A stretch of 64,000 bases of DNA from a virus. Its lineage: Duplodnaviria; Heunggongvirae; Uroviricota; Caudoviricetes. Every line of letters begins with the position of its first letter. Within the stretch, counting starts at the first letter, position 1. The stretch lies in the IMG/VR virus record IMGVR_UViG_2684622670_000009, positions 1 through 64,000 of that record; one strand, given 5' to 3'. Made by a program: the position numbers. Shown here piece after piece: positions 25,201-34,200 of this stretch.

Positions 25201-28200
25201 TGATATATGCCTCATTATCGGTTAACCAGTTCCTTGTTGGTGGAGTCCAAGGTGTCAAACAGGGATGCAAATTCAGCATCCAGCGCCGCTTTTTTGTAGG
25301 CTTCGAAAGTAGCCTTGCTGACAATTACTGCTGGCTCACGGCCTCTGCGGGTGATTTCAACCTCTTCCCCGGCCTCAACATTGTTGAGCACTTCAGAAAG
25401 GTTGCCGCGCGCGGTACGGAAGTTAATGGATTGCATAAATACCTCGTGTACTCGTTATGTGTACACAATTATAAACTTCACAGGCATAAAGCACCAGCAC
25501 TTTGCGGCTTAACAAACCTCTAGGCAGGTCATTCGTAGCCTAATGTCCGAACTGCTAAAGCATCCAAGTTGCTGTAGAATCACCGCCAATTACATAAGCC
25601 TGAAATAAGTGGATGAAAATGACAAGTATTCAACAACGTGCAGAGCTTCATCGTCAAATCTGGCAAATTGCTAACGATGTCAGGGGTTCGGTCGATGGAT
25701 GGGATTTTAAGCAATACGTTCTGGGCGCACTTTTCTACCGTTTTATCAGCGAAAATTTTTCCAGCTATATTGAAGCCGGGGATGACAGTATCTGTTATGC
25801 GAAACTGGATGACAGCGTAATTACTGATGACATTAAAGACGATGCTATCAAAACTAAAGGCTACTTCATCTACCCCAGTCAGCTTTTCTGCAACGTAGCG
25901 GCGAAAGCAAATACCAATGACAGACTGAATGCAGATTTAAACAGCATCTTCGTTGCTATCGAAAGTTCTGCTTACGGTTATCCTTCAGAAGCTGACATCA
26001 AAGGTTTGTTTGCTGATTTCGATACCACCAGTAACCGCCTGGGTAACACCGTTAAAGATAAAAATGCCCGCCTGGCTGCGGTTCTGAAAGGGGTTGAAGG
26101 GTTAAAACTTGGTGACTTCAACGAACATCAGATTGACCTGTTCGGTGATGCCTATGAGTTCCTGATCTCTAACTATGCGGCAAATGCCGGTAAGTCAGGC
26201 GGCGAGTTCTTTACACCGCAGCACGTCTCTAAGCTGATTGCACAACTGGCTATGCACGGGCAGACCCACGTTAACAAAATCTACGACCCGGCAGCAGGCT
26301 CCGGTTCGCTGTTGTTGCAGGCTAAAAAACAGTTTGATGACCATATCATCGAAGAAGGTTTTTTTGGTCAGGAAATCAACCATACGACCTATAACCTGGC
26401 GCGTATGAACATGTTTTTGCACAACATCAACTACGACAAGTTTGATATCAAGCTGGGCAATACGCTGACTGAACCGCACTTCAGAGATGAAAAACCGTTT
26501 GATGCCATCGTTTCTAACCCGCCGTATTCGGTGAAATGGATTGGCAGCGATGACCCGACGCTGATTAACGATGAACGTTTTGCCCCGGCTGGCGTTCTGG
26601 CCCCCAAATCCAAAGCTGACTTTGCGTTTGTATTACATGCGCTGAACTATCTTTCTGCCAAAGGTCGTGCTGCGATTGTTTGCTTCCCGGGTATTTTTTA
26701 CCGTGGCGGTGCGGAGCAGAAAATCCGTCAGTATCTGGTCGACAATAACTATGTCGAAACCGTGATTTCACTGGCACCGAATCTGTTCTTTGGCACCACC
26801 ATTGCCGTCAATATTCTGGTGTTGTCTAAACATAAAACGGATACCAACGTTCAGTTTATTGACGCCAGCGAACTGTTCAAAAAAGAGACTAACAACAACA
26901 TTCTGACCGATGCTCATATCGAACAGATTATGCAGGTATTTGCCAGCAAGGAAGATGTTGCTCATCTGGCGAAATCTGTCGCGTTTGAGACCGTTGTCGC
27001 TAATGACTATAACCTGTCGGTGAGCAGCTATGTGGAAGCGAAAGATAACCGCGAAATTATCGATATTGCTGAGTTGAACGCAGAGCTGAAAACCACGGTC
27101 AGCAAAATCGACCAGTTGCGTAAAGATATTGATGCGATTGTGGCTGAAATTGAAGGCTACGAGGTGCAGAAATGAGCGAGATGAGTTATCTGGAAAAATT
27201 GCTGGATGGGGTTGAGGTTGAATGGAAAACACTAGGGAAAGTGCTTAAACGAACTAAAGGCACAAAAATAACCGCTGGGCAGATGAAAGCTCTTCACAAA
27301 GATAATGCGCCGCTTAAAATTTTTGCAGGAGGAAAAACAGTAGCCTTTGTTGACTTTAAAGATATACCAGAGAACGATATTAATAGAGAGCCATCGATTA
27401 TTGTTAAATCCAGAGGTATTATCGAATTCGAGTATTACGATAAACCATTCTCTCACAAAAATGAGATGTGGTCATATCACTCAAATAATGATGCGATAAG
27501 CATAAAGTATATTTATTACTTCCTAAAAATAAATGAAGGATATTTCCAGAAAATTGGGGGTAAAATGCAAATGCCACAAATTGCAACTCCTGATACAGAT
27601 AAGTTTGAAGTTCCAATCCCTTGCCCGGACAATCCGGAAAAATCCCTTGCCATCCAGTCCGAAATTGTTCGGATTCTGGATAAATTTACTGAGCTTACAG
27701 CAGAGCTTACAGCAGAGCTTACAGCAGAGCTTAGCATGCGTAAAAAACAATACAACTACTATCGCGACCAGTTGTTAAGTTTTGATGAGGAGCAGGAAAA
27801 ACCTATTTATCTGGAAAAATTGCTGGATGGGGTTGAGGTTGAGTGGAGAACTTTAGGAGAAATAGCAGTAATTTATGATGGAACTCACAAGACTCCCAAA
27901 TATACGGCTTCCGGAGTTCCTTTCGTTAGCGTGCAGAATATCAAAAATCTATACGGGACAAATAAATATATTTCACCTGAGGATTTCAAAACATACAAGA
28001 ACAAACCGCGCAAGCATGATTTGTTTATGACGAGGATTGGCGATGTCGGTACTTGTGCTATTGTGGAGGATGATAGACCATTAGCATACTACGTAACACT
28101 TGCATTAATACGAATAAATCAACAAATTGCTGTACCAGGATTCATTCGTTATTTAATCGAAAGCAGATTTGGTAAGGCCGAATTGTATAAAAGAACGCTT

Positions 28201-31200: not shown

Positions 31201-34200
31201 AGTTTTTGAGGTCGATTTGCTGAAGTCTCAGGAAATAAACCTGGATTATATCCTTGGACTGATTTTCGAACACAACAGACAAAATAAAGGCAAGGGCGAA
31301 ATGATCGAAGAGGTCAAACGCTTAATTCGTTCAAGCCTAGGGAACCGTGCTAAAGAGGGCCTGGTGGTCGATTTTATTCAGCAAACGAACCTGGATGATT
31401 TACCGGACAAAGCCAGCATCATTGACGCATTCTTTACGTTTGCTCAACGCGAACAGCAACGTGAAGCAGAAGCATTGATAAAAGAAGAAAATCTCAATGA
31501 AGAGGCAGCAAAACGCTATATTCGCACGTCTTTAAAACGCGAATATGCCACCGAAAATGGCACAGAATTAAACGAAACATTACCAAAACTTAGTCCGTTA
31601 AATCCGCAATATAAAACGAAAAAACAGGCAGTTTTCCAGAAAATCGTCTCGTTTATTGAGAAGTTTAAAGGCGTAGGCGGAAAAATATAGCCCAATTCGT
31701 GTTTTTCTTGCGGGTTCTTAATTAAACCCGCAAGAGACCGTGGGGTTCCAAATGGCTAATATACTCCCCTTACCCATGCGCGACAATGCTGCCAAAAGTG
31801 ATAGAAAACAGCCAGAAATAGATCGCGGCCATAATGATTTTGAATGCCGTGTTCATATCTTCAGCTCCTGTGATTGATTGGATACATGCCGCGCCCCTTG
31901 CGGCATGTTTTTATTTTTACCTTCTCTGCTTTAAATATCAAGATTTATTAGAGCAATTATTGCTGATAGAGAAGCGCATTTTCATACTCCCTGACCATTA
32001 ACGTAAGTACGCCGTGACTCCTGAAAACACGCGCCACTTCAATCTTATCTTCCAGCGCGAACGCAATTTTACTTAGACCAATTTTCTTCAGGAGATCAAT
32101 CTTTGCTGGACCGTCATTTCTGTCATCGGTGGCAGGACGCATAGATAGCAAAGGCTCAGCCCCATTTGTTACGTGCTTACGCAACCAGGCTCGTGTTTTA
32201 TCCCTGGCTATCTCACAGCGCCCGGTTACAAACCAGAGGGTGTAAATGCCGGACAACTGGCGCACCATATCAATAACTGGAGTGATGGGGGCATCAGTGT
32301 CACAGGCAAGGTTAAACTCGTTCCAGTGCTCTGTTAATGCACCTTTACCTGGTGGTGGAAGTAAATGCAGTCTGTCTTCAGTTGCCTCTGATATTGTTCC
32401 ATCAATATCGACTATGACGATATACGGACGTTCCTGGTGTGCGTGTTTATTGAAAATACTCAAATGCCCTCCTCATTGGACGAAAAAAATGCTGGTGGGC
32501 GCACTCCACCAGCATTAAAAGTGACACTGTAACTATCAGCGAACGTAAATAGTGCCGCCGTTCTCTTTTTCCCATGCATCGCTACGTGCATAGCAAACAT
32601 CGAGAAGTCTTCTTGCCGCAGTTTCTTCTAAACCCAATTCAACAACCAACTGCTCATGACGGCGGGTAACTACATCAAATAGGCTATGCAGCCCTTTAGT
32701 TGCCAGATCATCAATGAATTCCGGTTCGAAGGGCAGCTCTGCATCTGCCAACATAACTTCTTGCGCCCACTCAACTCGACGGACCAGTTCTGGACGGCGG
32801 CTTTCCATCTCTTTACAAATCATTTCATGGAAGAACTCTACCCAACCTTCCGGCTGGAACTCGCGGAAAATGGCCAACGGCTGGAAGTTTGGCATCAACC
32901 ATTCGTTGATTCGGATATCAATGGCATAGCCCATGTCGCAGCAGAACTGATAAGCAAAGTCCAGCTTAGAAACGATATAAGGACGTTCGTTATTAAACTC
33001 TTTAGGAGATGAGATCCCATAAGCCAGGAGGCGTGGGAAGAAGGAGATTTGCCCTAACGTCGGATGAGGTTTGCTTGCAGGGAAACGGCGCTCAGTAATG
33101 CCATACATTTCTTTCTTGAGCGTCGCAAATTTGGCATTTTCATTAACCAGCTCAGTAACCTCTGTTTTTTATTAGCAAATGCCACCCGTGCCTCGCTTGC
33201 ATCTTTAATAGCCTTTTTGAGCTGTTGGTTAAGGTCGGCGACCTGCTTACGCAGTTCCTGTCGCTCGCTTTTAGCTTTGTTATAGCGTTTCTCAAGGTTA
33301 AAAGGATCAAGTTTCATGATCTCTTTATATTGAGATTTTAGCGTTGAAATCTGTGAGTTCCGCAGTTCAACCATCGCGGTCATTTCATTGAGTTTTGTTT
33401 CCAGCTCAATGCTTATACGTTCGGCATTATCAGCACGCTGGTTGGCGTCATGCGTCGCATCGTCAATTGCGTCCTGTTGCTGGCGTTTCAAATGTTCAAT
33501 TTGCAGCTGAAGCTCTTCAATTTCTTTACCCTTCAGACCGAGGTCCAGCTGCATATTTTCAGCTGCATCTACCAGGTCATTATGGCTATCAGCCTCTGCG
33601 TTATAAACATCAATAAGCTGTGCGTGAAGCATCTCTGCTGACTGAACCGCATTATCAAAAAAACGCGCTGTGAGGTCATCACAACTAACTCGGCGTTGCG
33701 CGGCCCGGATGTTCTGGATAATGGCCGGGATACCGGCATTCAGGACGTCAGGGATAGATACATTTTCGATTGATTGGTTTTGTGCTGAAGTGTTCATTTC
33801 AAAGTTCCGTATTAGCTTGTACTTCGGTCATTTTTCCTAAGTATGAAGGAGGAAGGACTACGCAATTTGTATCCAGCCCCTCACCCAGAGCAGCCTGTAA
33901 AATTCTGGCTAAGGAGAGTCTCTTGTTGCGATACCGGGTGATGACATGCCTGATATCGCCGGACGGCGTAACAAAGGCGATCAGCCAGTAGTGATATTTC
34001 CGTCGGAATGGCCACATAGTGCACCTTATGGATTGCTCTAATAAAAAACGTGATGAGTGTACATCACGTTTTAAAAATATGGAATTATTAGAGCAATATT
34101 ATTCTGATTCTTGCTCAAAAAACGCGCTAATGAGAGGAAGCCAATCCTCTGACACTTCACGCGGTCGCGGTTTGCCGTGGAAGAAGATTATTCGGCAGTC

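Follow-up and report, generated by a model that had tools for sequence, protein, structure and literature searches.

A complete type IC restriction-modification cassette with three TAEL repeats in a P1-like phage-plasmid, and its two-copy siblings

Families of type I restriction-modification systems are recognised by cross-hybridisation, by complementation and by similarity in sequence, and for a type IC member one expects complementation with EcoR124I subunits and a bipartite target, methylated at adenine, with a spacer of 6-8 base pairs. For type IC, the rule that connects a short repeat in the specificity gene to the spacer of the target, the reassortment of recognition domains and the presence of phage P1 DNA at the borders of the loci are known from publications of the years 1989-1997. 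The prototype of the family is the pair EcoR124I and EcoR124II, encoded by plasmids R124 and R124/3, of which the former has two TAEL copies in its specificity subunit HsdS and recognises GAA N6 RTCG, and the latter has three and recognises GAA N7 RTCG; the two forms interconvert by unequal crossing-over (PMC3874165). EcoDXXI and EcoPrrI carry three copies each, and in engineered hybrids of EcoR124 and EcoDXXI the spacer shifted as predicted from the number of repeats, so that the rule can be considered established for EcoR124I/II and for these hybrids (PMC3874165). Here we describe a system of this type in a viral sequence of 64,000 nucleotides (IMG/VR record IMGVR_UViG_2684622670_000009, positions 1 to 64,000; the window), in which a complete type IC cassette is carried by a P1-like phage-plasmid, and in which the three-copy specificity allele very probably arose by the gain of a single repeat unit of 12 base pairs (bp).

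The window is the first 64 kilobases (kb) of the 84.5-kb contig BBVP01000027.1, which belongs to the draft assembly GCA_001514785.1 and has the same coordinate numbering. The cassette and its genes, with lengths in amino acids (aa) or nucleotides (nt), are as follows.

25513-31765, + strand: hsd cassette of 6.25 kb, between the ends of P1 homology (BLAST)
25613-27175, + strand: hsdM, N6-methyladenine (m6A) methyltransferase subunit, 520 aa (Pfam N6_Mtase, HsdM_N)
27172-28452, + strand: hsdS, specificity subunit, 426 aa (Pfam Methylase_S), with a 4-nt overlap with the hsdM stop
28574-31690, + strand: hsdR, translocase/endonuclease subunit, 1038 aa (Pfam HSDR_N, SWI2_SNF2, T1R_D3-like, EcoR124_C)

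The three open reading frames (ORFs) were recovered complete and at exactly the positions given by the original prediction, and their arrangement is that of a type IC operon, with the order hsdM-hsdS-hsdR, hsdS overlapping hsdM, and hsdR set apart by a gap of 121 nt, all on the + strand. The proteins are close to those of the prototype. HsdM differs from the EcoR124 subunit (PDB 7bst chain D) at 2 of 520 residues and has an intact NPPY motif (residues 302-305). HsdR could be aligned with EcoR124I HsdR (PDB 2w00) over residues 1-1038 (2292 bits), with 8 differences among the 968 residues displayed; D151, E165 and K167, which we take to be the PD-(D/E)xK nuclease residues in EcoR124I numbering, are all present in this alignment, as are the GSGKT and DECH motifs. 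HsdS aligns over its full length with EcoR124 HsdS, its N-terminal, central and C-terminal conserved regions being near-identical and both recognition domains divergent. The small number of differences in HsdM and HsdR marks the cassette as a true type IC (EcoR124 family) system, judged by its sequence, and one equipped with a different specificity subunit, which bears out the proposed EcoR124-like assignment.

Thus, the window shares with EcoR124I and EcoR124II the gene order, the conserved regions of HsdS and the 12-bp TAEL repeat, and differs from them in both recognition domains and in its carrier, which is a P1-like phage-plasmid instead of a conjugative plasmid. Since both recognition domains are different, the half-sites are not expected to be GAA and RTCG. 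EcoPrrI, encoded by the prr locus, has the type IC family, three TAEL repeats and flanks containing phd-doc and pap in common with the window. A locus that would be of this type was found in a P1-like contig (L046, IMGVR_UViG_3300029516_000004); it has phd-doc and pap flanks, an hsdS with three TAEL copies, and at 7220-8410 a 396-aa ORF with a GTGKT motif that presumably resembles the anticodon nuclease PrrC. Its recognition domains are other than those of the window, and the 396-aa ORF lies between hsdS and hsdR where the window has only the 121-nt gap. No recognition motif could be assigned to the window by comparison with EcoR124I and locus L046, the window domains being unlike those of either. 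The recognition-domain pair is an uncharacterised one, which is a modest new point.

The repeat itself lies in the central conserved region of hsdS.

27691-27733, + strand: tandem array of a 12-nt unit (GAGCTTACAGCA, 3.6 copies) encoding TEL-TAEL-TAEL-TAEL (Tandem Repeats Finder, 100% matches, score 86)

In the hsdS reading frame, ACAGCAGAGCTT encodes T-A-E-L at 27697-27708, 27709-27720 and 27721-27732 (HsdS residues 176-187), and these three units are directly preceded by ACT GAG CTT, encoding TEL. Tandem Repeats Finder and the reading frame agree on the three copies that had been noticed earlier, and the 43-nt array cannot be attributed to chance, because it is a perfect tandem tract in a conserved coiled-coil segment and is also found in relatives. 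With three TAEL copies the central helix segment, which measures 20 residues from ILDKF to QYNYY, is equal in length to the C-terminal segment, which measures 20 residues from ILDKF to QYEYY. Both families of DNA repeats that flank the array are spaced 642 nt, in agreement with the equal helix lengths.

The origin of the three-copy allele can be judged from its closest relatives. A search of the protein collection yielded a 422-aa protein (P0003) that corresponds to the window HsdS minus one TAEL and is otherwise identical. This protein is encoded on four contigs, of which L079 and L080 are P1-like, with phd-doc and pap flanks, and L078 and L081 are non-P1 islands. Over 17.3 kb, L080 and the window share 99.6% identity, with 6 substitutions in the 6.1 kb of hsd sequence, and the sole nucleotide difference between the hsdS of the window and those of L078, L080 and L081 is one 12-bp unit (aligned as 27691-27702). 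Five more proteins with the window domain pair, 97-99% identical in alignment, all have two TAEL copies. When 171 type IC HsdS sequences were clustered by recognition-domain pair, the other members of the window domain pair carried two copies without exception (10 of 10), and counted by contigs the allele family comprises 13 with two copies and 1 with three. The exact 426-aa HsdS was found only on the window's own contig, and no hsdS match covering at least 80% of the window allele was present in PLSDB plasmids or complete E. coli genomes; type IC hsdS matches as such were found in 777 PLSDB plasmids and in 1289 of 5426 complete E. coli genomes. It was through the protein collection alone that the two-copy twins came to light. 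Since the other known copies of the allele carry two units, parsimony favours a recent gain from two to three.

It is conceivable that the extra unit arose through an error of assembly or sequencing and that the source plasmid really has the common allele with two copies. For this domain pair, three copies are known from a single draft contig, in which pmgS is split by a 1-bp deletion that may itself be a sequencing error. However, a tract of 43 nt is shorter than any modern read, so that assemblers normally count it correctly, the reading frame is kept, and other hsdS genes of type IC commonly have three copies, with 21 matches in IMG/VR. We consider an artefact highly improbable, and a true gain of one unit remains the preferred explanation.

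The window allele is not the only one in which the copy number varies. Mixed TAEL copy numbers were found in 5 of the 25 multi-member domain-pair groups. At the DNA level, the two-copy locus L047 and the three-copy locus L051 share 99.6% identity over 11.8 kb, and a single 12-bp unit, here written in other codons (CTTACCGCTGAG), is all that distinguishes their hsdS genes; another independent pair with two and three copies, the third in total, is that of L025 and L033. To determine the range of copy numbers, every IMG/VR contig was searched with a degenerate pattern representing DKF[ST][AE]L(TAEL)n..RK[KQ]QY, with the following result.

n=1 TAEL copy: 0 matches
n=2 TAEL copies: 29 matches
n=3 TAEL copies: 21 matches
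n=4 TAEL copies: 0 matches

Three copies are a common and arguably the default state, not a special one, and the occurrence of only two repeat states (2 and 3) in viral contigs is a new observation. One-copy HsdS proteins exist in the larger protein collection but are rare, and the four-copy variant that the original prediction envisaged was not encountered in the census. A separate observation from the same scan is a 56-kb viral contig (IMGVR_UViG_2837715220_000001) with two three-copy TAEL matches on opposite strands (L122 and L123), representing two type IC hsdS central regions.

These data bear on the possibility that the array serves as a device for true phase variation at high frequency, comparable to a phasevarion, by which two-copy, three-copy and possibly four-copy forms interconvert within a single lysogen culture, and do so frequently enough for a programmed specificity switch. 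Such a device would agree with the change in copy number in at least two lineages without any other nucleotide change in hsdS, with the mixed domain-pair groups, and with the interconversion of EcoR124I and EcoR124II by unequal crossing-over described in the literature (PMC3874165). On the other hand, 3.6 units of 12 nt are far below the tracts known for high switching rates, the ratio of 13 contigs to 1 in the allele family indicates that the state is mostly stable, and the lack of one-copy and four-copy forms in IMG/VR suggests a constraint to two functional states instead of free slippage. Repeat units divisible by three were dropped from the survey that has been published on type I gene repeats, and variation of the TAEL type therefore lies outside it (PMC7383803). 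Frequent switching within a culture is in our view unlikely. Of the built-in specificity switch that had been proposed, the part that stands is that copy number varies between otherwise identical hsdS genes; what was found is polymorphism between isolates, not phase variation within a population. To judge from the sequences compared here, the array appears to have two states and to have changed between them repeatedly in the course of evolution.

If the system functions like the near-identical EcoR124, a complex of two HsdM subunits and HsdS would methylate a bipartite asymmetric target and in this way protect both plasmid and host, and with HsdR added (R2M2S) it would become a nuclease that translocates at the expense of ATP and cleaves incoming DNA if this is unmodified. 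The two recognition domains of HsdS would set the target, and the length of the central helix would set the distance between the half-sites. The gain of one 12-bp unit, by unequal crossing-over or by replication slippage, would then yield an HsdS that is predicted to recognise the same half-sites as its two-copy siblings, placed one bp further apart. With half-sites at a different distance, DNA modified by one form would be unprotected from the other form.

This scheme presupposes a working enzyme, and the cassette could instead be functionally silent, for example because it is unexpressed in the prophage or because the three-copy HsdS assembles poorly, in which case it would add nothing to defence. 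A scan of 25200-32000 for promoters and terminators gave counts not above those for shuffled sequence, and a separate hsdR promoter was not demonstrable; the absence of a promoter signal above chance is compatible with silence, and so is the annotation of hsdM and hsdR in fragments in phage vB_EcoM-673R5, which illustrates that such cassettes can decay. Against this, the three frames in the window are intact and nearly identical to those of a biochemically active enzyme, the hsd genes have accumulated only 6 substitutions relative to L080, and the active enzymes EcoR124II, EcoDXXI and EcoPrrI all have three TAEL copies. A silent cassette thus seems quite improbable, and we prefer to regard the cassette as a probably active system with a recently gained third repeat. 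Several points do weigh against this interpretation. The activity of the window allele is predicted by analogy with EcoR124, and the promoter matches are no more numerous than in shuffled sequence. The change in spacer was demonstrated experimentally for the EcoR124 and EcoDXXI domains only, and three copies combined with other recognition domains could lower the activity or loosen the specificity. That a unit was gained and not lost follows from parsimony, with 1 contig against 13, and the three-copy allele rests on a single draft-assembly contig.

Besides the array, hsdS contains duplicated conserved blocks around its recognition domains, which are listed here together with the approximate limits of the domains.

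27186-27236, + strand: N-terminal conserved block (YLEKLLDGVEVEW...), copy 1 (direct repeat D2, 51 nt, 92% identical to 27807-27857)
27237-27599, + strand: N-terminal target recognition domain, approximate limits (variable segment between conserved blocks)
27600-27686, + strand: conserved block VPIPCPDNPEKSLAIQSEIVRILDKF, copy 1, start of the central helix (direct repeat D1, 87 nt, 89% identical to 28242-28328, spacing 642 nt)
27737-27782 and 28379-28424, + strand: repeat pair, 46 nt, 72% identical
27807-27857, + strand: central duplicate of the N-terminal block (direct repeat D2)
27858-28241, + strand: C-terminal target recognition domain, approximate limits (variable segment)
28242-28328, + strand: conserved block VPIPCPDNPEKSLAIQSEIVRILDKF, copy 2, start of the C-terminal helix (direct repeat D1)

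Compared to EcoR124, the linker that precedes the C-terminal domain of the window HsdS is 14 residues longer and contains a full YLEKLLDGVEVEW block where EcoR124 has only EVEW. A full block at this position is a minority form, present in 3 of 56 viral loci when the five loci of the window allele itself are left aside. It resembles the trace left by a domain which moved from the N- to the C-terminal position and took its leader along. The presence of conserved blocks on both sides of each recognition domain will have helped domain exchange, and its products are easily found among other alleles: the window's N-terminal domain is paired with at least 6 different C-terminal domains, and the C-terminal domain with at least 6 different N-terminal ones. 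In P0001, which is encoded on 31 contigs, the two recognition domains of the window occur in swapped order, the C-terminal domain of the window being N-terminal. In a 415-aa group comprising P0004 and its relatives, of which the member P0009 alone is encoded on 40 contigs, the N-terminal domain type occupies both positions, for which a palindromic target is predicted. The domain shuffling that had been suggested from the duplicated blocks is therefore supported both by the blocks, which are real, and by the existence of swapped-order, doubled and single-domain-sharing alleles. It is similar to what is known for type I specificity genes in general, where one and the same domain can sit on either the N- or the C-terminal side and be combined with many partners. 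An inverting system of the shufflon type, which would need silent hsdS copies in inverted orientation and a site-specific recombinase, was considered and rejected; a blastn search with hsdS against the whole window found only hsdS itself and its internal repeat. Since the window holds no second hsdS copy and no recombinase partner, shuffling should occur between replicons instead of by programmed inversion.

The cassette occupies a known site in a P1-like genome. The flanks of the window are 95-98% identical to phage P1 (98% on the left up to 25512, 95% on the right from 31766 onward), and other large ORFs match a phage portal protein, a DnaB-like replicative helicase and a tail protein, with a weaker match to the terminase large subunit. 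The genes adjoining the cassette are the following.

24835-25215, - strand: doc toxin gene, P1 backbone, left flank (Pfam Fic/DOC, PF02661)
25215-25436, - strand: phd antitoxin gene, P1 backbone, left flank (Pfam PhdYeFM_antitox, PF02604)
31957-32463, - strand: pap, P1 backbone, right flank (PHROG polynucleotide kinase / HAD_PNKP)

As in the P1 module, phd overlaps and precedes doc, with a nucleotide identity to P1 of 98%, and pdcA and pdcB follow beyond these genes on the left side. Homology to P1 ends at 25512 (P1 87970) and resumes at 31766 (P1 84482), so that the cassette replaces the P1 segment humD-lxr-hot-upfONM-pmgVUT between phd and pap; homologues of humD, lxr, hot, pmgV, pmgU and pmgT were not found in the window. 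According to the GenBank record of P1, the homology to the flanks of the EcoDXXI hsd locus ends at P1 87969 and 84482, which coincides with the junctions in the window. EcoDXXI thus resembles the window in being type IC, in its three TAEL repeats and in its P1 junctions; it differs in its flanks, which are P1 remnants, whereas the window is a whole P1-like genome. Tyndall and co-workers reported in 1997 on hsd loci of type IC that have P1 DNA at their flanks (Mol Microbiol 23:729). The pmgT-humD segment is also among the eight highly variable regions that were recognised in a survey of P1-like phage-plasmids (PMC9603915).

The position of phd and doc immediately to the left of hsdM and on the opposite strand is as originally described, and it is a frequent one. 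Among the loci that were fetched, phd-doc lies beside hsdM in 34, and hsdR and pap are present as well in 30; the latter comprise 27 IMG/VR contigs, the phage record L001 and the twins L079 and L080. A functional link between phd/doc and hsd was rejected as unsupported; hsd genes that are 99.5% identical also occur in non-P1 islands (L078 and L081; 6445-12497; GCA_040747675.1, GCA_020376165.1), where the two-copy hsdMSR lies beside McrBC, ScoMcrA-like and DUF4942 genes. The two lie side by side at a known recombination junction, and this is no evidence that they work together. Since the homology of these islands to the window is confined to the region from about 25616 (start of hsdM) to about 31680 (end of hsdR), hsdMSR appears to move as a unit between defence islands and P1-like plasmids.

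Some further observations were made on these loci. In the record L001 of a P1-like phage (vB_EcoM-673R5, ON470615.2) the segment 4018-9969 has hsdM in two pieces and annotations for HsdR1, HsdR2 and a hypothetical protein, which suggests frameshifts or sequencing errors; its hsdS has three TAEL copies and domains other than those of the window. The head morphogenesis gene pmgS of the window (32536-33797, - strand) is split into ORFs of 247 and 190 aa by a 1-bp deletion at about 33164, a C missing before a run of six T, as compared to L080 and L079, which have one 420-aa gene. The deletion is either a real inactivating frameshift, which would make this a defective prophage, or an error in the draft assembly. 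At 47715-51002 on the - strand, a 1095-aa ORF matches the phage DNA methyltransferase families PHROG 116, 56 and 363; it is presumably larger than P1 Dmt, going by the size that we assume for the latter.

The description and the interpretation that were given originally are correct, but they concern a well-known system in a well-known place, and the present results have little bearing on principles. What is new is a natural pair of two-copy and three-copy hsdS genes in near-isogenic P1-like plasmids, and its practical value is that of a ready-made natural experiment on the spacer rule. Two public E. coli assemblies contain P1-like plasmids that are 99.6% identical over 17.3 kb and whose hsdS genes are one TAEL unit apart, and these twins offer a test of the rule on a third, uncharacterised domain pair, together with the assignment of a new specificity. 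For the biology of the phage-plasmids, it is a tentative and on balance doubtful idea that the TAEL gain was an adaptive step in the competition between near-identical P1-like phage-plasmids, in which siblings restrict each other. If it were true, a plasmid with the three-copy form would neither recognise the methylation pattern of its two-copy siblings nor be protected by it, and the change between two and three repeats would be a recurrent way to break cross-protection without the need for new recognition domains.

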